Notes under the pieces: model-generated
Told to the model about the DNA's origin: nothing
Database searches by the model: none
What the model saw: the letters and a program-made list of their open reading frames with translations, nothing else
IMG/VR virus record: IMGVR_UViG_3300046048_000227
Span: 1-64,000 of that record
Origin: a virus
Length of the DNA stretch: 64,000 nt
Strand: one strand, 5' to 3'
Shown here: positions 2,247 to 53,951 of the stretch, in pieces
Numbering within the stretch: the stretch's first letter is position 1
Layout of the letters: the number at the start of each line of letters is the position of its first letter
Made by a program: the position numbers and the translations under genes

Positions 2247-5200
2247 CAACTAGTAGGGCGCACTCATCCACTCACCTAGTGAGTGAGATTATATAGCGAG
2301 GTGTAGAATGACTAAGATATTTACAGTAGCAGGCTTGATAGTTGTGTTGTTGGGGGCATTGAGCATGGCGGGGTATATTGCCGTGTTTAGTGGTGCGTTT
2401 ACGCAAGTAGGCGCGGTAGTAATCGGCGGTTCTTGCACATTAGCAGGAATCATGGCGCAGTAGTACCAGTTGGCAGAAATTTTCAGCGGGTACGTTGTCG
2501 GGGGGTCGCGGGGGCTTTTGCCCTGAAAGGAACTGCTCGATTTTCACCCCCCGATAGCGTATCCAACAAACCGCGCCCCCCTATGGGCTGGCGGGAGTAT
2601 AAACCGCTCCCCCGTACTGGGTGGCGGGAACATAGTGTGCTGTCCAGTAGTGTGCGGCACACAGTATACGGGAGAACAAGCATGAACAAGAGAATTTGGA
2701 AAGTAGTGCTCACAACTGAGCCGTATTTGGGTTCGGTTGTGCGAGTGTGGCGGAATGACGGTCTGCCACCGCGGGTGTATGTAGGTTATCGGCATTGGTA
2801 TCGCATGGAACGTGTAACACAGCGGTACGCATACAATCAAAGTAGGGTTATTACTCGTACTATGGGAGCATGACATGAAATCATATAGAGAGTTCTATAC
2901 ACGCAGAATACGAGAGGATAGCGTGTACATCGACAAATTGCACGACAGGATGGAGAATGCCACTGACGTTGAGCAGGCACGTGCAATATCCCGACAGATA
3001 GAGCGTGGCGAGAAGATGCTGGAGCGTTGGTGGAATGCCCTTGCTGATTGCATCTTATTAGGCATTGAGTAGGGAGTGAAAAACATGAGAACTTTTATTC
3101 GGTTGTACAGCCTATTCCGTACTGGGTATTTTAGTACTGTTCAGGTGATAGTGCGTGAAGAGATTATCGACAAGTCGTTGTTGGATGTGTTGTGCGACGA
3201 ATTTGATGGTTATGGGTGGGAGATTGCTGAGATGTATGCGGACACAGCGTTTGTCTCGTCAGAGAGTCATGGCGTTGACGGGCGCGAGTGTTATGGGCGT
3301 TTGTGGGCGTTTCCACCCCACACCATCCAGTACCAGAAGAACATAGTCAATAGCACGATAGCTAAGGGCGTGCTATGTGGTGAGTTGGAAAGTGAACCCT
3401 TACGTCAATGGTTAGTCAAGCAAGGTTATCTGTAAGGAGCGTGTAGTATGACCACCATAGCAGAGCACGGAGAAAACATACGTCGCTTGAGTACGAAGTT
3501 CGAGTTGATTCAGGCACGTATCGACAAGCTGGACGAGCGTTGGATTATATACACGCTTGAGATGGCACAAGGCGAGATCATGGTACAGCTATTCGATGAG
3601 TTGTATCAGGTGAATCAGCTATTATGTGCACGCTTAGACTTGGGAGTGTGAGATATGCCTATTACTGGAGAGTTGGTGCTTATACAGGCACGCATTGTAA
3701 AATGGGGGAGTCAGATCGACGTTATTGATGAGCGCATGAAGCGCACGCACACACTCAAAGCACGAAAGGCGTTGGATGAGCGCAAGTATTATCTCATGTG
3801 TGCGATAGCGGAGCAGGCATGGAAGATCAACAAGGTGCTAGAGAGCCTCCCCTGCGAGGGTGGCGGGTAGGATTGGTGGCGACGCCTTCCCGTCGAGCGT
3901 GGCGGGAAGGTATCTCTCTAGTAGGGAGCATTTATGCTCAAGCGGGTATAAACACCTGTTTGAACGGCAGTTATGGGAGCATGTAACATGAACACACTAG
4001 AAAGAGTAGCACATTTGAACAAGCTAATCGCGGCTAACGTCCAACGACTAAGCGAGTCTTTCGGTAACAAAAACATCCCGCAGTCAAGCGTGGCGGACTG
4101 CTATGCTGCGCTGGAAACTTACCGCAGTGAGCGGATGCACTTACTATACAGGGAGCATGAGTACGTGCTAATACTCATTGATCCTGACGGGGGTAAGAAG
4201 GTTATCGCAGAATTTAACAGCATGTACAATGCTTACGAGTACATGGATAACTTTGAAGAACTGCTCGATCCTAGTAAGTACGAGCGGACTAATGTACGTA
4301 CTATCATCACAGTCGATGGGTATGTGCGCCAGATTGAAGAACGGGAGGCAATATGAAGGGTGCAATTTGTATCTTAGCAGGGTTGGCGGCAGGCATTGTA
4401 GTCGCCTTTGCAATCAATGCAATCGTAAAGATCATGGCAGTTATATACATGGCTGTGGTCGCGGGAGGTATGTGATGGGAAAGTGGATTAGATTACGCAA
4501 CAAGACCGTGGCAAAGAAGATGTGGCGTGCTGGCAAGACAGTAGGGTTGCTGGCGTGCAACCTGCGCTTTGGGGGGATGATGGGGCAACCATGCCCTACT
4601 AAGCAAGCGGACTATGTTGAGCACTTGGAGTGCATGGATTGGCAATCTATCTATCCTGGGTGCACCATCGAAGAAGCAGCTTGGCGCAGTATGTATAATA
4701 ACTGGCAGTACTATAACGCCAACAGTGAGTGTGGTTACTACGCACACTATTACTTGGAGGTGAAGGATGAGTAGTGTAGCATTGACTTTCCTTGGGCTTG
4801 GGTGTATACTGGCGGGACTATTCGCCTGTGATTGGAGAGACACGCGGTACTCAATACTGCGCTTCCCATTAGCGGTGGCGGGAGCACTACTGGTGTGCGT
4901 CGCTATCATAACGTTACCTTGAAAGTATCTTACCCTAGGAGGGTACAATGAAAAAGTTTACCGTATTGACTAACAATGATCTTGAACGAGCACGCACTAC
5001 GAGCATAAATCGCAAGAGCGTGCGGATAGAGCACAAGGGCACGAAGTTATACGTGCCTGTGCTACCATTGCCTAGTGGTAGTAAGCCAGGACATGTAGGC
5101 TGGAGAACACGAGCCTTAGCAGAGCAAGTGTTTGATACCACTGCTAGTATCAATAAAACCCGCATACTACGAGTGGCGGGAATGCTTTAAGCGAGTCTAA

Positions 5201-5714
5201 ACTTAGACTAGGTAGGGTGCGTGTAACAACGCACCTTACCCATAGGAGATATAACATGTACTACACATTAGTATATTCATTTTGCAGGAAGGTTAGTACG
5301 TTGTACGTCATCGACGGAGAACTTACGTTTGATCAAGCCATAGACAAGTTAGATGAGATATTCTTAGCTTATACTAAGTGTGCTTGCTGTGGTGAGAGGT
5401 GGAAGTCTTGGCGAGTAAATAATCCTACCGAAGTAGTCAACATGACACATGTGCTACCCGCTAGCACTGTGGTCTATTACAGTGAGATAGGCAGGTTTGT
5501 TTTTGCGCGTCTTGTGCGCAAGGAGAGTGAAGAATGAACGAGTACATGATAGTACTACGACCCAACGGCAAACTAACACATATCCCAGGTGCACGAACAG
5601 CAACGTTTGTTGATCGTGTACTTGGGGGTGATTGGAAGGCTTGCCTATTAACACAAGCAGAGAGCGTAGAGCAAGCGAAGGTACGATTTGAGCAGGTGCA
5701 CAAGGAGCAAGATC

Positions 5715-6938
5715 ATGGATGAGATCATACTATGCCAAGTGAGTACGGAGTTGATACAGCCAATCAATACAACGCTGGAATACTATCAGCGCGCGTATGG
5801 CTATATGGACGGGTATCATATACCGTCCAAGCACTTCATGGAGATACCGCTATGGATTGCAGTGGTGGCAGGTAAGCTACATAAGTATACACCAAGATTA
5901 CACATCGTACAGAACGTAGAAGATACAGTGAAGTACCTGAACAAGCAAGACTCAGACGTACCAGTACTGTTTAGTGTGCTTGATGTGAACAAGCATATCA
6001 TTCGTAGCATAGTGGATGAGGTAGACAGTCGCAGAATAATCTTAGGCGGCTATGTAGACCCTGAGTACTTCTTGTTCTACGACAACGTAACGTGGTTAGA
6101 TAGTGTCGATGAACTGTCAGGTGAGTTCCAGTACTACGATCATGCCGCGGCACCAGATTACACACTATTCAAGTGGATGTGGACAGTGCCACGATTGACC
6201 TTGAGCAAAGGATGCCTGCATAGCTGTAAGTTTTGCAGTGTAGAGCGGGTGCTAACTAGCATGTCAACGCTGGAGATAAACCAGCAAGTGACAAACATGA
6301 GAGGACTCAACTTCAAGCTTATGTACATAGACGATAAGACGTTTGGGCAGTCGTCTAATTGGAGATTGCTACGTGCAATTTACGAGGAGATAATTGCCTA
6401 TAACCCTGAGTTTATGGGGTTCATTGTACAAACAACTGTACCCTACGCAGTGAAGTACATACGTGAGTGGGTGGAAGACTACCATGTACTGCACGTAGAA
6501 GTGGGCGTCGAAGTACCGAGCGACAAGTTTCTGGAAAAGATGAACAAGCCATACCGTATGAATAAGCTCAACAAATTGATAAATATAGTACGTGAGCTTG
6601 TACACATGGACGAGTACAAAGTAGGGTTCATTCCTAACCTGATCTTTGGTATGCCAGACGACGATTATGTATCCACGTACCGTTGGGTGCGTAGTTGTCA
6701 GGACATTATCAGCTTTGTTAATCCATACGTGCTAAGTTATTACTCAAATGCTAAAGGGGATATAATAGGCGATGAGCAAGAACGCGGTGCACAAGACAGC
6801 AACGAGAACACCACAGATAGAACGTGGCTGTCACCTATGGAGCAGAAATTAACCGAGGTGTTCATGTACAAAATACTCAACCACACATTACTCAATCTGT
6901 CATTACGAGCAGACGAGGTAGGCGTAAAAGTAGTGTAG
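5715..6938 (+). CDS. Radical SAM protein, probably with a degenerate B12-binding-like N-terminal domain
   Basis: CxxxCxxC (GCLHSCKFC), IILGG, YIDDKTF, GVE, LIFGMP motifs. Confidence 0.85.
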   Translation: MDEIILCQVSTELIQPINTTLEYYQRAYGYMDGYHIPSKHFMEIPLWIAVVAGKLHKYTPRLHIVQNVEDTVKYLNKQDSDVPVLFSVLDVNKHIIRSIVDEVDSRRIILGGYVDPEYFLFYDNVTWLDSVDELSGEFQYYDHAAAPDYTLFKWMWTVPRLTLSKGCLHSCKFCSVERVLTSMSTLEINQQVTNMRGLNFKLMYIDDKTFGQSSNWRLLRAIYEEIIAYNPEFMGFIVQTTVPYAVKYIREWVEDYHVLHVEVGVEVPSDKFLEKMNKPYRMNKLNKLINIVRELVHMDEYKVGFIPNLIFGMPDDDYVSTYRWVRSCQDIISFVNPYVLSYYSNAKGDIIGDEQERGAQDSNENTTDRTWLSPMEQKLTEVFMYKILNHTLLNLSLRADEVGVKVV

Positions 6939-24449: not shown

Positions 24450-24560
24450 GCTGTGAGAGTGATGGGTTAAGGGTTCGAGTCCCTCTCAAAGGTCGCTCCT
24501 TTGTAGCCTATCTAGTGAGTATACGCACGATGGTAAGTAGGTACAGCCCACTCTCACAGC
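24450..24560 (+). ncRNA. T-loop-containing tRNA-like small RNA (Y RNA-like candidate)
   Basis: 12-bp gctgtgagagtg/cactctcacagc enclosing aggg-TTCGAGT-ccct. Confidence 0.6.
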
Positions 24561-29687: not shown

Positions 29688-30189
29688 CTTGGAGGTGTCT
29701 ATGGCAACTTTGCACTATGAAAAAATGAGCAACTTCTTAGACAGGTCTAGGAAAGACATTACTGAAGGTGAGTTTAAAGACAGGCTTATGGCTGTGTACA
29801 AAGATATCAACGAAGAGACCAGAGATAGAATGTACGCAGCTTCTAAAAAACTAGGAGGAACAGGCAGTTTCTACCAAGTGCTATTTGTATTTGATACCCT
29901 ATATATGTTAGGACTAGAGGAGTGTAATGGCGAAAGCTAAACAACCATATGAACGTCCAGTAAAAAAAGATTCTCCAGAACTACCAGAGTACAAGAAAGA
30001 GTACAACCAGTTACACTCAATAGTTAAAATAGGAAATATTGTACAAGTTGATATTCGTAAGATGGACGGCTGCTGGAAACTAGCAACTGTCGAAGGTGTT
30101 GTAGAAAAGATAAACATTAACTCAATGAAACTGTCTGGTAGAGACTTTGCCATCCCTTGGTACACTATACATGACTGGGAGATATTAGA

Positions 30190-30615
30190 ATGACTAAAGC
30201 AGCTAAGCTAAGTAAAACACAAGAGTATCAAGACTGGACAGTGCGAACAGCTATATATAGAGACAGCATAGAAGAATACTTAGAAGATCAGCACGCTAAA
30301 AACTCTAACAGAAATTACCCAAAAATACCAGGGGCTAATTACGAAGCTCTCATGCTTGAGATACTATATTTATCTAGCGGTCTTGGTGGAGAAACAGGAG
30401 AAGTTCAAAACCAAATTAAAAAATTAATTAGAGATGGGTACACAGATAGCATTAAAGATAAAATACATGACGAACTGGGTGATGTATTGTGGTATGTAGC
30501 TAGGTTATGTGCTACTCTAGGTCTTGACATGGAAGAAGTTATGCAGTATAATAGGGAAAAGCTTGAGAAGAGACAAGCTGAAGGTAAGTTAAAAGGATCA
30601 GGAGATAACCGATAA
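30190..30615 (+). CDS. MazG-like nucleoside triphosphate pyrophosphohydrolase
   Basis: GL.GETGEV...IKK..RD, ELGDVLWY, N.EKL..R, GSGDNR. Confidence 0.88.
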   Translation: MTKAAKLSKTQEYQDWTVRTAIYRDSIEEYLEDQHAKNSNRNYPKIPGANYEALMLEILYLSSGLGGETGEVQNQIKKLIRDGYTDSIKDKIHDELGDVLWYVARLCATLGLDMEEVMQYNREKLEKRQAEGKLKGSGDNR

Positions 30616-30688
30616 GCGTTTATAGTTCAGTAGGTAGAACGTCTGCTTGCCAAGTAGAAGGTCGTGGGTTCGACCCCCACTAAACGCT
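30616..30688 (+). tRNA. trnG: tRNA-Gly(GCC)
   Basis: loop TT-GCC-AA, U73. Confidence 0.93.
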
Positions 30689-30987
30689 CACAATAACTAT
30701 GACTATACTAGACACATTCCCATTCACAAGACTTGAGTACATGCAGAGCGTAAGTCCTGTTGTCAACCATATATATGAAACAACAGCACCAACAAGCACA
30801 ATTGTATCTCTCTTAGTAGACCCCGTTGGGAAAGACTACTTAGTTAGAAAGTTTAAAGACATAGTTGGAGCTAAAGAAGTACCGCTACTTCGAGATAAAA
30901 ATACTGGTGGGTTGTATCCAGTAACGGCTGTTAGACAATTAAAAGACGGTAGGGTACAGGCTTTTATCCTACTAACCCAAAAATAGC

Positions 30988-31016
30988 TTGACAATAAAGG
31001 TAAAGTACTTTACAAT
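30988..31016 (+). promoter_or_regulatory. Sigma70-type promoter for tRNA-Ser / large ncRNA / tRNA-Ser / rtcB unit
   Basis: TTGACA-17-TACAAT. Confidence 0.8.
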
Positions 31017-31035
31017 AATAGTTGATAATAAATTC

Positions 31036-31125
31036 GGAAGGTTGACAGAATCTGGTATTGTGACGGCTTTGAATACCGATGCCTACCGCAAGATAGTGGG
31101 AGTTCGAATCTCTCACCTTCCGCCA
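31036..31125 (+). tRNA. trnS: tRNA-Ser(TGA) with encoded CCA
   Basis: GGAAGGT/ACCTTCC-GCCA, long V-arm. Confidence 0.88.
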
Positions 31126-31643
31126 GATGCGATCAGGATATAGCCTCGCCTGATAAATGGTGCATGAATCACGGCTCCCGCTAACCAACGAGCGGAAAAA
31201 ATTTGTGCAGCACCACACCTGCTACTGTGCCTAATGGTAGTTTTCCTCAGAGCACTAGGGGTGCAGCCAGCGTAAGCTGGAAGGCTTGTTCGAGACAAGC
31301 TGAGGAAACTGCAACTCATGTGGGGCGTCTCTCCCCAGAGAACCATGAGAAAAAGGTGTGACCCTGAGACCACACTTGGCAAAGGGAGACTGTCAGGAGA
31401 GACTGACACCCAAAGGTTCCTCCCTGTTGAAAGAGTCCCTGATGACTCTGACTGTTTGGGGCACAAGACTAAGACCCCTGCGAAAGCTGAACTTTCTAAA
31501 TAGGGAGGTCTACGCGGAAGTGTACAATGATGTACCATCTAGACTTAGCGGTTGACGATGAGGGAGCGAAACCCTACTTCTGCTCTAGCCTTACCTACCA
31601 TGTGTAGGAAAAGATCGTGGATCGTAGTAATGCGATCCATGCA
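31126..31643 (+). ncRNA. Large (~515 nt) ornate ncRNA, GOLLD/ROOL-like candidate
   Basis: More than 15 stems, nested multiloops, GNRA and T-loop-like loops; bounded by two tRNAs. Confidence 0.75.
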
Positions 31644-31731
31644 GGAAGGTTGGCAGAGAGGAAATGTGACCGCCTGGAAAGCGGTAGCCTACGGTAATAC
31701 CGTAGCGAAGGTTCGATCCCTTCACCTTCCG
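31644..31731 (+). tRNA. trnS: tRNA-Ser(GGA)
   Basis: accgc-CTGGAAA-gcggt, long V-arm. Confidence 0.92.
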
Positions 31732-31749
31732 CCTAATAAGGAGTAGAGA

Positions 31750-32916
31750 ATGACTTTAGTATTCGGCAAGCACGATGAGAGCACATTAGAGCAGATGGAA
31801 CTAGCAACTTCAGATGAGTCAGTAGTAGCGTCTGTGCTATGTGCTGATGGGCACCTAGGGTACTCAGTACCTATCGGCGGAGTAATAGCCTACGATGGTA
31901 TGATCAATCCTGCTGGCGTTGGTTACGACATAGCTTGTGGCAACATGGCTGTGCGCCTACAAAATCAGGACGGTTTATCTGATCTTGTCGTGCACAATAT
32001 AGCAGAAATTATGGACACCATTGTTGATGAGATTGCCTTTGGGGTAGGGAAAGAAAATAAATACCCAGTAGACCATGACTTATTCAACTCTTCTGCTTGG
32101 CATATTGACGCAGTAAGCCCACTAAAAGAAACAGCCCATAAACAGCTAGGTACTGTAGGTTCAGGCAATCACTTTGTAGATATATTTATTGATGACGATG
32201 GAAGTATCTGGATAGGTGTTCACTTTGGTTCACGAGGGCTAGGGCATAAAATAGCTACCCACTATGTAAAAGAAGCTGGAGGTAAGCAGGGAGCACTAGC
32301 AGTACCAGCCCTACTTGATGAAAATTCTTACGCAGGAGAAGAGTATATAGCTGCTATGAACTTAGCTGGTAACTATGCTTATGCTGGTCGTGAATGGGTA
32401 GTCAACAAAGTTCTCGATATCATAGGTGCTGAAGCTGCCCACACAGTACACAATAACCACAACTTTGCGTGGAAAGAAAAACACTTCGGAGAACATTTAT
32501 GGGTAGTGCGTAAAGGCTCCACTCCAGCATTTCCAGGTCAGTACAGTTTTATTGGTGGCTCCATGGGTGATGTGTCTGTAATTGTAAAAGGCAGAGAAAC
32601 ACCCCTGAGCGAAAGAGCTATGTACTCTACAGTACACGGTGCTGGCAGAGTAATGTCCCGAACTGAGGCGGCTGGTAAAACTAAATATAACAAAACAACT
32701 AAGCAAAGAGAGCGAGTATCAGACGGTGCTATTTCTAAAGAAGACATGCTAAGTAGATTAAAAAACTTTGGTGTTGAGCTACGAGGAGGAGGACTAGATG
32801 AAGCACCTCAAGCATACCGCGATTTAGCTACAGTACTTCAGCACCAAAAAAATACAATAGACATAGTAACTGTACTGAACCCTATAGGCGTAGCTATGGC
32901 AGGGCAAGGTGTGTAA
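31750..32916 (+). CDS. rtcB: RtcB RNA ligase
   Basis: D.HLGY..PIG, GVGYDIACG, LGT.G.GNHF, H.GSRG.G, HN, RKG.TPA, HGAGR.MSR, DEAP.AY. Confidence 0.97.
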   Translation: MTLVFGKHDESTLEQMELATSDESVVASVLCADGHLGYSVPIGGVIAYDGMINPAGVGYDIACGNMAVRLQNQDGLSDLVVHNIAEIMDTIVDEIAFGVGKENKYPVDHDLFNSSAWHIDAVSPLKETAHKQLGTVGSGNHFVDIFIDDDGSIWIGVHFGSRGLGHKIATHYVKEAGGKQGALAVPALLDENSYAGEEYIAAMNLAGNYAYAGREWVVNKVLDIIGAEAAHTVHNNHNFAWKEKHFGEHLWVVRKGSTPAFPGQYSFIGGSMGDVSVIVKGRETPLSERAMYSTVHGAGRVMSRTEAAGKTKYNKTTKQRERVSDGAISKEDMLSRLKNFGVELRGGGLDEAPQAYRDLATVLQHQKNTIDIVTVLNPIGVAMAGQGV

Positions 32917-33169
32917 TGCCCAAAGCAGTGATGTGCACAGGGGCACTAGACTTAACAGTAGACGAAAAGCCCATTGACTATAACGAAGTTGATGGAATTT
33001 GGGGAGAGCGACCCACTGGGCGCAAACGTATACGGTTAAGATGCCCTAAGTGTAAACGAAAACTATGGTCATCCATAAGTGTGCACGACACTACAGTATT
33101 CCACGCACTGCCCCCCCACAAACCCAAAGGTTGGTGGAAGAAGAAAAAGAAAGTAGGCAGAAAAAGAAA

Positions 33170-33385
33170 ATGAAATACGAGACCGTCAACCACCCTGAGC
33201 ACTATAATAAGCATCCTTCTGGTGTAGAAGCTATAGATATTATAGAGCACTTTAACTTTAATATTGGTAACGCTATTAAATATCTATGGCGATCTGGTCT
33301 TAAGCCTGGACATGGTACAACAGAGGATTTAAAAAAAGCTTTATGGTACATTAACAGAGAAATAGAAAGAGTAGAGCCTCTATAG
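33170..33385 (+). CDS. DUF3310-family protein
   Basis: VNHP.HY...G.EAID, GNAIKYLWR...K, EDLKKA.WY. Confidence 0.88.
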   Translation: MKYETVNHPEHYNKHPSGVEAIDIIEHFNFNIGNAIKYLWRSGLKPGHGTTEDLKKALWYINREIERVEPL

Positions 33386-33448
33386 ATCAATGGATAGATC
33401 ACCAGCCTTTTAAGCTGTGAGATTCTGGTTCGAGTCCAGATGGGGGTA
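33376..33448 (+). tRNA. trnK: tRNA-Lys(TTT); contains upstream stop codon
   Basis: loop CT-TTT-AA. Confidence 0.9.
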
Positions 33449-33452
33449 CTAT

Positions 33453-33531
33453 GCGGGTGTAGTCGGCGCGGTTTCCTAAACCGTTACCCGTAGAGGAACT
33501 GAGAAGGTGGGTTCGACCCCCACCACCCGCT
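33453..33531 (+). tRNA. D-armless tRNA-like RNA, anticodon CCT (Arg), extended variable region
   Basis: GCGGGTG/CACCCGC; only 8 nt before gcggt-TTCCTAA-accgt; gtggg-TTCGACC-cccac. Confidence 0.75.
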
Positions 33532-33890
33532 CTTGAGAGGAGGTACTATGACAAGCTATACACAAAAACAGTTAGACCGTCTACCATTATGGGCACAATA
33601 CGAGATTGCGCGATTGAAGAGTAATGAAGAGTACTATAAAAAACACTTTAACAAGACCGTTACTGGCACTTCTGGCATAGCAGTGTACACTATTGCAGAC
33701 GACTATGCTGAACCTGCTGGCTATCTACCTGGATTTAGTTATGTAAAAATGAACGGTATTAGGATAAAATTATCAGAAAAGATAGGAGCACATAAGGGTT
33801 TAATTGAGGTTAGTTGTTCAGATCAGCTAGTATTTCTTACAGGATCAGCTAACCAAGCGTATATAACGCACGAAAAATTTTAGTTAGCCT

Positions 33891-33964
33891 GCCTTCATAG
33901 CACAACTGGATAGTGCAAGCGACTCTTAATCGCGAGGTTGATGGTTCAAGTCCATCTGAGGGCA
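33891..33964 (+). tRNA. trnK: tRNA-Lys(CTT)
   Basis: loop CT-CTT-AA. Confidence 0.92.
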
Positions 33965-34038
33965 CTGTAATCTTTGGGACACTATAAGACTTGCTGGTTG
34001 GGTGGAGTCCCTTATGTGACGACTGAAACCAGCACCAA

Positions 34039-51146: not shown

Positions 51147-52965
51147 TGATTTCTCTATACCAGACTTTCCGCATACTATAATCACAGACCCAGACAAAGT
51201 TAGTGAACAGTTCATCCAAAAGGTAGGAAGGCAACCACTCCTATCTTTTGACTTTGAAACTACTGGACTACACTTTAAAAAACATAAAGCTGCGGGAATA
51301 GCTATAGCTAATCAAGAGCACGCTTGGTACATACACGATAAGGCTATGCACCAGCTAACGCCGTGGTTGAAAGATAATTTTGTTGACTCAAACATAACAT
51401 GGGCGGCACACAATTCAATCTTTGATATGCACTTTCTTAAAAATGATTTTAATGTACTGCCTGCTTCGCTAGTAGATACACAGCTTGCCCAGTGGATGTT
51501 AAACGAAGAAGACTCACTTGCCTTGAAAGAAGTTTCCAAGTTCAAACTTGGGATCACTGAAAACTTACCTTCCTTTAGAGACCTACAAAAACATGCTAAA
51601 GAACTACGGGATATTAAAAAAATTGATGATGTATCTATTTTTGATATTCCAGTAGAAATGCTAGGAATATACGCCGCATTTGACGGAAGACTAACCTTTG
51701 ACTTATGGAATAAATTAGAAGGCGAGTTAGAAGCTGAAGGACTAAGAGAAGTCTATGATGAAAACATTATACCGTTTACCTATGTTCTCCTAGACATGGA
51801 AGATCGTGGTGCTTACATAGATCGTGATAGAGTAATAGAACTTAAGGATCAGTACGAGGAAATAGCCGATGATCTTTTAACAAAATGGAAAAAGAAAGTA
51901 GGCGACGTTAATCCAAACTCTCCCCAACAGCTAAGGGAACTCCTGTACACTCAAATGAACTTGAGAACAAGCAGGAAAACCAAGAAAACAAAGCTTCCCT
52001 CAACAGACTCTCTCGCCTTACTGCGCCTTAAAAGAAATGATAAAACAGGTATTGTATCTTTGCTAATAGAGTACAAAGAATATAACAAACTAATAAGTAC
52101 GTACCTAACACCACTGCTAAACAAAACTATTGACAACTATATATATACTAACTTCAAACAAACTGGCACTGTAACAGGGCGACTTAGTTCTAGTGGTGAT
52201 ATCAATCTACAAAACATTCCTAGCCGTACAGAAATAGGAAAAGAAATCAGATCATGTTTTATCGCTCCGCCAGGAAGATCATTATTGGTTACAGACTATT
52301 CGCAAATTGAACTACGAATTTTAGCACACTATACTAGAGATGAAAATCTAGTAAGAGTATTCTACTGGGGAGAAGACCCGCACCAATTAACAGCTAACAA
52401 AATGGGAGTACCTAGATACGTTGGCAAAACTCTTAACTTTGGTATTATCTATGGAGCACAAGCACGGACAATAGCTGATCAGATTGAGAAAATTCCTAAG
52501 CCAAGACCTAAAGAATCTGTAGCAAGGAAATGGTTATTAGACTTTGAAAAAATTATCTACCCTTCAATCCCTAAATGGAAAAAGACTGTTATAAATACCG
52601 CTATTCAGCAAGGGTACATAACTACGATTGGGGACAGGCACAGACACGTAACTAACCTGGATCATTATGATGAGTACACTAGAGGACGGGCAGAAAGACA
52701 GACTATTAACAGCTTAATTCAGGGCAGTGCAGGAGATTTTATTAACCAGTCAATGTTATCATCTAGCAACACTGCTAAAGAACTGGATATTTGGTACCAC
52801 ATTCAGGTACACGATGAACTGGTTACAACCTGCCCAACAGAATTGCTAGATGAAGCTAGCAGATTTATGCAAACCAGCATGGAGTCTATGAGAGAAGTAT
52901 TCAACCTATCAGTTCCTATTTTAGCACAGCCTGCTACAGGCGCAAACTGGATGGAGTGCAAATGA
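51139..52965 (+). CDS. polA: Family A DNA polymerase (3'-5' exonuclease plus polymerase, no 5' nuclease)
   Basis: DFETTGL, HN..FD, YAA.D, TGRLSS, DYSQIELR, K.LNFGIIYG, QVHDEL. Confidence 0.97.
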   Translation: MFDDFSIPDFPHTIITDPDKVSEQFIQKVGRQPLLSFDFETTGLHFKKHKAAGIAIANQEHAWYIHDKAMHQLTPWLKDNFVDSNITWAAHNSIFDMHFLKNDFNVLPASLVDTQLAQWMLNEEDSLALKEVSKFKLGITENLPSFRDLQKHAKELRDIKKIDDVSIFDIPVEMLGIYAAFDGRLTFDLWNKLEGELEAEGLREVYDENIIPFTYVLLDMEDRGAYIDRDRVIELKDQYEEIADDLLTKWKKKVGDVNPNSPQQLRELLYTQMNLRTSRKTKKTKLPSTDSLALLRLKRNDKTGIVSLLIEYKEYNKLISTYLTPLLNKTIDNYIYTNFKQTGTVTGRLSSSGDINLQNIPSRTEIGKEIRSCFIAPPGRSLLVTDYSQIELRILAHYTRDENLVRVFYWGEDPHQLTANKMGVPRYVGKTLNFGIIYGAQARTIADQIEKIPKPRPKESVARKWLLDFEKIIYPSIPKWKKTVINTAIQQGYITTIGDRHRHVTNLDHYDEYTRGRAERQTINSLIQGSAGDFINQSMLSSSNTAKELDIWYHIQVHDELVTTCPTELLDEASRFMQTSMESMREVFNLSVPILAQPATGANWMECK

Positions 52966-53951
52966 CAGAGTACGATCCAACAATTAGTTCCCTTCTTGAT
53001 TTAGCTCAAGTACGATGGGAAAACAGGGAAGAGAACAGAGACCTTTTAGTTAGGTGGGGTATCCCATTCTTAGATAAAAGACTGTTCGGTATAAACACTG
53101 TTGACGGTGAATTAATATTAATAATTGGAGAAGAAAAACAACGCAAAACTACTCTAGTGATTAACACAATAGTAAACATAATGACAGCAGAGAAACCAGA
53201 AGTAAAACCGCACACAGTTATAGACACACTAGAAAGCGGTATGCCTCCAGGCAGATACACAGATCAGCTTGTTAGCAACCTAGCTTCCAGGTACCTAATG
53301 GAGATTGACCACATACCAGCATCCATGGGCAAGTGCCAAGTTTGCGGGGATTTCTGTAAAGAATTACGGTTATCACCAGAACATTTAAACTACCTACCAC
53401 TGTCCTCGCAACAAAGAGTAGCAGTAACCAAAGCTGTAGCTCACATGAAAGAGTGGCCCGTAGATATATGGGGTGCTGGAATGAACCAAGGCGACACTAG
53501 AAACCTAAAGAATACTGTTGGCGATCTTGATCAGGAGTCTAGGTGGATATGGTCAGCAGAAAACAAAGGCAGTAAGATTTTTGTGATAGACCACGTTCAA
53601 CAATACAGGTTTGATGACATTGTTAACTCAGACTACGAAAAACTTATCAGAGCGGTAAACTCTATTGGCTCTTTCGTAGCCGCATACAAGACAGCAGTGT
53701 TCTTAGTGTCACAAATTTCTATGTGGTCTATGAGAGAGGCTAAAGCTGGAGGAAAAGCTAAAGCGTCTGGAGGAAAAAAACCACACGAGGAAGCTAACGT
53801 TATCATTAAGTCGTCTTATGAGGACAACTCTGGTCAGCTTGGCGTATCTCTAGAGGACAGCAGGAAAAGTGGTTCAGGGTTCCAGCATTTAATTATTGAT
53901 GATATCTCTGGAGCAATAGTACCTAATAAGGATAACAACCCATATGAGTAA
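52962..53951 (+). CDS. DnaB/RecA-fold helicase-like protein with non-canonical Walker A
   Basis: FLD..L.G....ELILIIGEEKQRKTT, TLE, FVIDHVQ, LVSQ. Confidence 0.7.
   Translation: MTEYDPTISSLLDLAQVRWENREENRDLLVRWGIPFLDKRLFGINTVDGELILIIGEEKQRKTTLVINTIVNIMTAEKPEVKPHTVIDTLESGMPPGRYTDQLVSNLASRYLMEIDHIPASMGKCQVCGDFCKELRLSPEHLNYLPLSSQQRVAVTKAVAHMKEWPVDIWGAGMNQGDTRNLKNTVGDLDQESRWIWSAENKGSKIFVIDHVQQYRFDDIVNSDYEKLIRAVNSIGSFVAAYKTAVFLVSQISMWSMREAKAGGKAKASGGKKPHEEANVIIKSSYEDNSGQLGVSLEDSRKSGSGFQHLIIDDISGAIVPNKDNNPYE

Follow-up and report, generated by a model that had tools for sequence, protein, structure and literature searches.

A phage tRNA-Ser spacer as a probable chain of folded RNA modules, with a 3′ hairpin unit of a widespread phage motif

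Introduction

Small RNAs can be derived from tRNA precursors, as is the case for the 3′ external spacer of the E. coli glyW-cysT-leuZ transcript, and the C4 antisense RNA of phages P1 and P7 is matured by RNase P. On a larger scale, ROOL and GOLLD, described by Weinberg et al. (2017; PMC5737381), are large non-coding RNAs of phages and prophages that often lie beside tRNA genes and whose function is not known; cryo-EM structures are given in 10.1101/2024.12.08.627333. A further class, the YrlA-type Y RNAs of bacteria and phages (RF02553), was described by Chen et al. (2014; PMC4201824).

The locus analysed here belongs to a 64-kb stretch (64,000 nucleotides; hereafter the window), the first part of a 101.7-kb virus record with terminal repeats, in which a spacer of 518 nt (31126-31643) separates two tRNA-Ser genes. 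Unlike ROOL and GOLLD, this spacer shows no conservation as a whole, divides into cloverleaves and hairpins that are independent of one another, and matches neither model at E<=10. It is best read as a chain of separately folding RNA modules, including three cloverleaves, and not as one ornate RNA, a reading to which we give a probability of roughly 0.6; that the anatomy is modular and includes a conserved 3′ RNA is held with reasonably good confidence.

Genomic setting of the spacer

Contigs identical to the virus record were found in sediment and wetland metagenomes, and the contigs of three DNA runs contained no sequence variants. Between 19.9 and 35.5 kb there are 31 tRNA genes and a tmRNA in the window, accompanied by numerous small ORFs, with every one of these on the + strand; two further tRNA genes lie near 49 kb. 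As stated in a preliminary description of this DNA, the spacer is bracketed by two tRNA-Ser genes and followed by rtcB: tRNA-Ser(TGA), which has an encoded CCA end, occupies 31036-31125 (+ strand; ARAGORN; Rfam tRNA 42.3 bits), tRNA-Ser(GGA) occupies 31644-31733 (+ strand; ARAGORN; Rfam tRNA 53.7 bits), and rtcB, with AAGGAG upstream, occupies 31750-32916 (+ strand; Pfam RtcB 7.1e-66). The consensus promoter reported there at 30988 was also recovered, as a sigma-70-like TTGACA-17-TACAAT before tRNA-Ser(TGA) (30988-31016, + strand) that fits the consensus at 11/12 positions; it is a pattern match only, and promoter-like sites are not enriched in 30000-34000 (7 found vs 7.1 expected). No terminator-like site was found on the + strand between this promoter and rtcB, and by position rtcB is part of the same transcription unit as the promoter, the tRNA-Ser and the spacer.

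Several minor features surround this unit. A perfect (12/12) sigma-70 consensus, TTGACA-17-TATAAT, lies at 30524-30552 within a MazG-like gene, 64 nt before tRNA-Gly(GCC), and suggests that each tRNA block may have a strong promoter of its own. An additional tRNA-Arg(CCT)-like gene is called at 33441-33530 (ARAGORN, 95% stringency), and a T-loop motif at 24473-24481 stands outside every called tRNA. Two overlapping + strand ORFs follow rtcB, 32916-33173 (85 aa) and 33065-33385 (106 aa), of which the 106-aa ORF is probably the real gene, because the 85-aa ORF scores like non-coding sequence (0.002 bits per codon).

A folded non-coding RNA outside known families

The 518 nt between the tRNA-Ser genes are ORF-poor, and their + strand folds at -184.2 kcal/mol with a z of -4.2, which 0/100 shuffles equal; for the minus strand z is only -2.4. 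Their G+C content (0.51-0.52) is at the level of tRNA genes, compared with 0.36-0.42 in the flanking genes. Codon scores of the ORFs within the spacer lie between -0.19 and +0.08 bits per codon and do not rise above the 5th percentile of real in-frame windows; eleven neighbouring real ORFs score 0.17-0.46, and orf85 (32916-33173) scores 0.002. These scores bear on the alternative that the spacer encodes a small protein, in a 141-aa ORF of the minus strand or in one of the plus-strand ORFs of 52-65 aa, which we regard as extremely improbable. It is true that 141 open codons within 518 nt are uncommon; however, the translation of this ORF is low-complexity, belongs to no Pfam family and had no true homologue among 1.84 billion proteins, where only two repetitive low-complexity matches were obtained, and the ORF lies on the opposite strand to all neighbouring genes and runs into a tRNA. 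Used as a six-pattern degenerate query, it also gave no match in IMG/VR and metagenomes.

A cmscan of 30950-31800 against all 4227 families of Rfam 15 at E<=10 returned the two flanking tRNAs and otherwise chance-level matches only; GOLLD, RNase P RNA, group I/II introns, tmRNA, self-cleaving ribozymes and YrlA did not match in this search. ROOL (RF03087; 574-position model, cut-off 99.1 bits) gave no match at E<=10 in the window or in the 101.7-kb record, in a search that scored two candidates, left 14 control genomes equally without a match and was thus run without a positive control. The segment 31126-31643 is a non-coding, folded + strand RNA outside known families. The preliminary description, which had called a structured non-coding RNA here and had named GOLLD, ROOL, RNase P and intron models as the families to compare, was on this point largely right: no known family matches, the + strand folds well beyond its shuffles, the ORFs score as non-coding and no protein family was found.

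The 518 nt also contain three terminator-like sites on the minus strand, each a hairpin with a T-run behind it, at 31207-31225, 31356-31375 and 31618-31639; seen on the + strand, they are A-runs ahead of hairpins. They may block antisense transcription, or they may merely reflect A-rich linkers.

Spacer modules and their relatives

Along the + strand, the spacer can be divided into six segments. Its first part (31126-31241) holds 5′ hairpins at 31132-31154, 31158-31215 and 31221-31241, with weak support (z -1.0; 37/200 shuffles equal it), and is followed by M1, a tRNA-shaped cloverleaf at 31242-31308 (z -3.9; 0/200 shuffles equal it). Three local hairpins (31315-31349, 31354-31377 and 31384-31411) make up the middle segment at 31310-31412 (z -0.9). 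C2, at 31419-31508 (z -2.3), is a 90-nt four-way junction closed by a 10-bp stem and bearing three hairpins; C3, at 31514-31585 (z -2.7), is a 72-nt cloverleaf closed by a stem of 7-8 bp, with AGCGAAA as the loop of its T-like arm; and a two-hairpin unit at 31586-31643 (z -4.5) forms the 3′ end. The modules take the same structure when folded alone as within the whole spacer. The nearly continuous pairing noted in the preliminary description agrees with the z of the whole stretch (-4.2), but the pairing is uneven, in that the 5′ 116 nt (z -1.0) and the middle 103 nt (z -0.9) fold at chance level. Most of the helices listed there occur in the minimum-energy fold, except that the loop closed by aggtgtg/cacactt is 10 nt long and not CTGAGA. 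No relatives of M1, C2, the 5′ hairpins or the middle hairpins were found, and the folds of these segments have a single-sequence basis.

Searches with the 518 nt gave no match in phage and plasmid collections (blastn) or in 198 loci of 1.5 Mb (nhmmer, blastn), and the spacer RNA was not found in the RtcB neighbourhoods of 4 IMG/VR and 73 metagenome loci (all <=56% identity). A single DNA polymerase protein as query found no relatives; an alignment of 20 members of the DNA polymerase clade retrieved two, among them the complete 92-kb phage G006, which has 34 tRNAs and lacks RtcB. By nhmmer, 31557-31633 aligns with the end of the tRNA-Glu(CTC) of G006 and the sequence behind it, and a 26-mer of G006 is identical to the window 26-mer at 24/26 positions. 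A scan with the core of this motif gave a third phage, G007, in which the motif stands after a sequence read as a tRNA by eye and before tRNA-Lys. G006 and G007 are the only tRNA-array relatives with any part of the spacer, and both keep just its last ~58 nt; the motif follows immediately on an ordinary tRNA or a tRNA-like sequence, and neither phage has a counterpart of M1 or C2. In all three phages a second hairpin follows the motif, with its sequence different and its pairing kept, and each genome has one copy. This comparison covers 31586-31643 and the placement of C3 only.

The preliminary description had regarded the spacer as one ornate RNA of ~515 nt, related at a distance to GOLLD or ROOL or else of a new class. 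Such an RNA would be closed by the pairing of its ends and would act as a unit, perhaps with RtcB. ROOL and GOLLD do occur in phage tRNA regions (PMC5737381), the whole stretch has a z of -4.2 and an even G+C plateau, and the minimum-energy fold closes it by pairing 31129-34 with 31613-18. However, this closing helix and a second one (31413-18/31587-92) use bases of the comparison-supported hairpins of the 3′ unit (hairpin A and hairpin 2, described below), and the centroid fold loses most of the long-range pairs. Furthermore, G006 and G007 share the 3′ unit without the other 460 nt, two of the six segments fold at chance level, and Rfam gave no match at E<=10, the ROOL model having scored two candidates without a match. 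A single large RNA is thus improbable, and the claim of kinship with GOLLD or ROOL could not be upheld; the spacer also shows that a long gap that folds well does not by itself testify to a giant RNA. As a control, two long ORF-free stretches upstream of other rtcB genes gave z values of +2.7 and -0.3, no better than chance.

In the modular reading, the three cloverleaves are probably tRNA-derived. For M1, the minimum-energy fold and the centroid fold are the same cloverleaf, with a closing stem of 8 bp, GG in the loop of the D-like arm and a T-like arm G-UUCGAGA-C. It displays a cloverleaf with a 7-bp acceptor stem, a UUCRANN-type T loop closed by G-C and the D-loop GG; the 5-bp anticodon stem is sealed by the 4-nt loop GUAA in place of a 7-nt anticodon loop. 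M1 appears to keep the outline of a tRNA and to be unable to decode. The Rfam tRNA model (RF00005; 29 bits required), run on 31232-31318 alone, did not match it at E<=10, ARAGORN recognises it at 85% stringency only, where ~7 further calls fall inside coding regions of the window, and a stem-free pattern for M1 gave no match in IMG/VR. With the tRNA-Lys genes of the same phage it aligns weakly end to end, with a score in the shuffle range. ARAGORN returns C3, as 'tRNA-Val(gac)', only when the stringency is lowered to 60%, where calls are at noise level; by nhmmer, its T arm and 3′ strand align with tRNA-Glu(CTC) of G006 and also with the G007 sequence, so that C3 seems to stand where each of these two phages has a true tRNA (the one of G007 being read by eye). 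Run on the 1.5 Mb of phage loci, model R1, a covariance model of 31413-31592, picked out tRNA genes in adjacent pairs and almost nothing else, which suggests that 31413-31592 has the outline of two tandem tRNAs.

These observations can also be taken to mean that the spacer is a graveyard of decayed tRNA genes, in which M1, C2 and C3 are roleless relics and only the 3′ hairpin unit is functional. The position of C3 at the relatives' tRNA, the tandem tRNAs as the nearest look-alikes of model R1, the weak alignment of M1 with the tRNA-Lys genes of its own phage (within the shuffle range) and the lack of module relatives for M1, C2 and C3 are all in keeping with such decay. On the other hand, the helices of M1 are free of mismatches in the fold while its decoding positions are gone, whereas neutral decay should damage both, and its anticodon loop is now exactly a GNRA tetraloop. 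Decay of the upstream modules is considered rather unlikely; that M1 is a tRNA mimic which does not decode but has its own function is conceivable but doubtful.

Structure of the conserved 3′ unit

The first element of the 3′ unit, hairpin A (31590-31613, + strand), consists of a lower stem (31590-92/31611-13), the pair 31594/31608 and a stem CUAC/GUAG that carries the loop CAUGU; an A.A mismatch and a bulged A, both conserved, lie between the lower stem and the apex. The 26-mer of this hairpin is unique in the window. Hairpin 2 (31616-31641, + strand) has 11 bp and a GUAA loop, and in the relatives its sequence is free and its structure kept. The apex AUCUACCAUGUGUAGAA, the 17-nt core, is invariant in 31 distinct phage sequences; since the rows of this alignment were chosen by the exact core pattern, the invariance is partly built in, and only the flanks and the covariation are free observations. 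In these flanks, the column pair 10-33 is CG in 26 sequences, AU in three, GC in one and UA in one, and the pair 11-32 is UA in 16 and CG in 15; neither ever fails, and the pair 12-31 fails in 1/31 sequences. G.U pairs are present at columns 9-34 in 13 sequences and also in the apex of the phi3T copy, which fits an RNA read from this strand.

Among the three phages (the window phage, G006 and G007), 6/13 pairs change on both sides and 94.9% of the cells pair, and the covariation score of this alignment was reached by 0/500 shuffles; for hairpin 2 alone, 5/8 pairs change on both sides. Covariation, which the preliminary description had named as the sign of a new class, is thus present in the lower stem and hairpin 2 of the 3′ unit, but the long-range closing stems clash with these hairpins. 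Across 33 family members, the 50 nt downstream of the motif fold at -12.6 kcal/mol, compared with -6.7 kcal/mol in same-locus controls (p 1e-13), and a U-run stands behind hairpin 2 in only ~4/33 members. A -10-like hexamer before the motif was not enriched (5/33 vs 0-8 at shifted positions), so the 5′ end is undefined where no tRNA precedes the motif; there, the motif may be part of a longer transcript.

We define the CUACCAUGUGUAG hairpin motif by an invariant apex, a covarying 3-bp lower stem, the A.A mismatch, the bulged A and a stable second hairpin within ~10 nt. The segment 31590-31641 fits it in every column; its score with model R2, for which it was part of the input, is 77 bits, and E-values of our self-built models are rough. 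Judging from sequence comparison, the unit at 31586-31643 belongs to a widespread, uncatalogued phage motif.

Distribution of the hairpin motif among phages

A 19-nt pattern of the motif occurs in 40 IMG/VR loci, compared with ~3 estimated by chance. Two 21-mer matches, L287 and L288, lie within apparent coding sequence and were treated as chance. A GTDB scan with the 21-mer returned one metagenome-assembled contig only. In P1 (NC_005856, about 52,880-52,985, minus strand) and P7, the copies are intergenic, between pmgF and rlfB, and hairpin 2 is terminator-like; the copies in Vibrio phage 1.084.O, phi3T (a one-base variant) and Geobacillus phage PK3.6 are, like those of P1 and P7, intergenic and without annotated features. 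BLAST matches suggest further copies in a Twort-like Staphylococcus phage, SPbeta-like Bacillus phages and Lak phages of Prevotella. The P1 form is found in 121/5426 complete E. coli genomes, and 6/8 of the E. coli matches listed carry no annotated feature. Rfam matches neither the window copy nor the P1 copy, a literature search with four motif sequence strings returned unrelated primers only, and the motif string is absent from the HK022 put RNA structure paper. The genes downstream of the motif are mutually unrelated.

The motif might alternatively work as DNA, for instance as a protein-binding, attachment or packaging site or as part of a promoter. Its single copy per genome and the invariant 17-nt core would suit such a site, and in several temperate-size contigs it stands after the apparent 3′ end of a tRNA, CCA included, a position typical of attachment sites. 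Yet what is kept in the flanks is the pairing, one position showing four pair types, whereas the sequence varies, and the G.U pairs are A-C mismatches on the other strand. Moreover, a stable hairpin of unrelated sequence always follows the motif, and in tRNA arrays the orientation of the motif is always that of the tRNAs. A DNA site is accordingly very improbable, and an RNA element is the preferred reading.

In three loci (L294, L296 and L298), the T arm, 3′ acceptor strand and CCA of an apparent tRNA lie ~30 nt before the motif and no full tRNA is called; this layout would be the picture expected at an attachment site in a tRNA gene. In 5/12 motif loci near a tRNA (L328, L309, L299, L322 and L329), the nearest tRNA is tRNA-Met(CAT), which in three of the five is the sole tRNA of the locus. 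This proximity may be due to chance, as phages often carry tRNA-Met. A second conserved 26-mer, TTATAGTTTGTNGNNTGCAAAGGTTT, adjoins the motif in phi3T (L334, 1573-1598), where it is downstream, and in Geobacillus phage PK3.6 (L335, 1450-1475), where it is upstream; it is absent from the window and all other loci.

Proposed processing and possible function

The order of the elements suggests a tRNA-punctuated transcript, which would run from the promoter near 30988 through tRNA-Ser, the spacer and the second tRNA-Ser into rtcB, and in which the cloverleaves could serve mainly as handles for the tRNA-processing enzymes of the host. Judging from position, 3′ maturation behind C3 would produce the 5′ end of a small RNA and an RNase P cut at the 5′ end of tRNA-Ser(GGA) its 3′ end, and both cuts together would release a two-hairpin RNA of ~58 nt. 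The earlier suggestion that tRNA processing could set free the spacer RNA is compatible with its place between tRNAs and behind a consensus-like promoter. Hairpin 2 may protect the 3′ end, and it may double as an intrinsic terminator in P1 and phi3T. As with the glyW-cysT-leuZ spacer and C4, the ends of the small RNA would be made by tRNA-processing machinery and not by a promoter and terminator of its own. However, the sequences are unrelated to these two RNAs, and the P1 copy of the motif lies elsewhere (pmgF-rlfB), with its own terminator-like hairpin.

The invariant loop of the ~58-nt RNA would be its working surface, read by a conserved factor. Since phages of Proteobacteria and of Firmicutes have an identical loop, its most likely partner is a factor that has been conserved among bacteria. 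That the 3′ unit acts as a released, trans-acting RNA is possible, with somewhat less than an even chance. The loop displays AUG and GUG. A more far-reaching version, which we consider unlikely, holds that 31586-31643 is a pan-phage small RNA that docks on a universal part of the translation or transcription machinery of the host, such as the anticodon of the initiator or methionine tRNA, the ribosome or RNA polymerase, and that the upstream modules are selected non-decoding tRNA mimics instead of relics.

If the proposed processing holds, phage tRNA arrays would also launch other small RNAs by means of the tRNA-cutting enzymes of the host. The conserved hairpin is the more useful result: E. 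coli, Vibrio and Geobacillus phages have the same 17-base RNA surface, which speaks for a target common to these hosts. Its function can be tested directly, because P1 and, with one base changed, phi3T carry the motif and can be grown in any laboratory.

Relation to RtcB, Ro60 and YrlA RNAs

The adjacency of rtcB, which the preliminary description had taken as a hint of a role in ligation or repair, is not a constant feature of carriers of the 3′ unit. Six other motif carriers, five of which are 96-100% complete, lack RtcB, and five carriers lack Ro60. The motif is not tied to RtcB, and the RtcB link is not general.

The spacer resembles YrlA RNAs in having non-decoding tRNA-like domains near RNA repair genes, and one copy of the motif, that of L306, precedes a Ro60 gene. 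It differs from them in that the phage has no Ro60 gene, no YrlA match was obtained and the motif occurs mostly without Ro60 or RtcB. In addition, the tRNA-like domain of YrlA is permuted, whereas M1 has the normal tRNA order. A Y-RNA-like partner, in which the tRNA-like modules and the hairpin would scaffold Ro60 or RtcB as in bacterial rsr-yrlA-rtcB loci, has to be weighed against these differences. In its favour, rtcB lies directly downstream of the spacer, in L306 the motif and three odd tRNA-like genes lie 261 nt upstream of a Ro60/TROVE gene, and YrlA RNAs do carry a tRNA-like domain, RNase P being able to cleave one whose acceptor stem has 7 bp (PMC4201824). Nevertheless, no TROVE domain was found in the whole record, in a search where control genomes gave matches, and the YrlA model (RF02553) has no match over the spacer. 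The six carriers without RtcB and the five without Ro60 point the same way, and neither gene was seen in the inspected stretches of P1 and phi3T. Such a scaffold is quite improbable, and the modular reading with its conserved 3′ unit remains preferred.

L306 itself, a 211-kb phage, shows an unusual arrangement, in which three tRNA-like genes at 3963-4245 are followed by the motif and then by a Ro60/TROVE plus vWA gene at 4475-6070. One of these tRNA-like genes is only 60 nt long and has no anticodon arm, yet scores 49.5 bits on the tRNA model.
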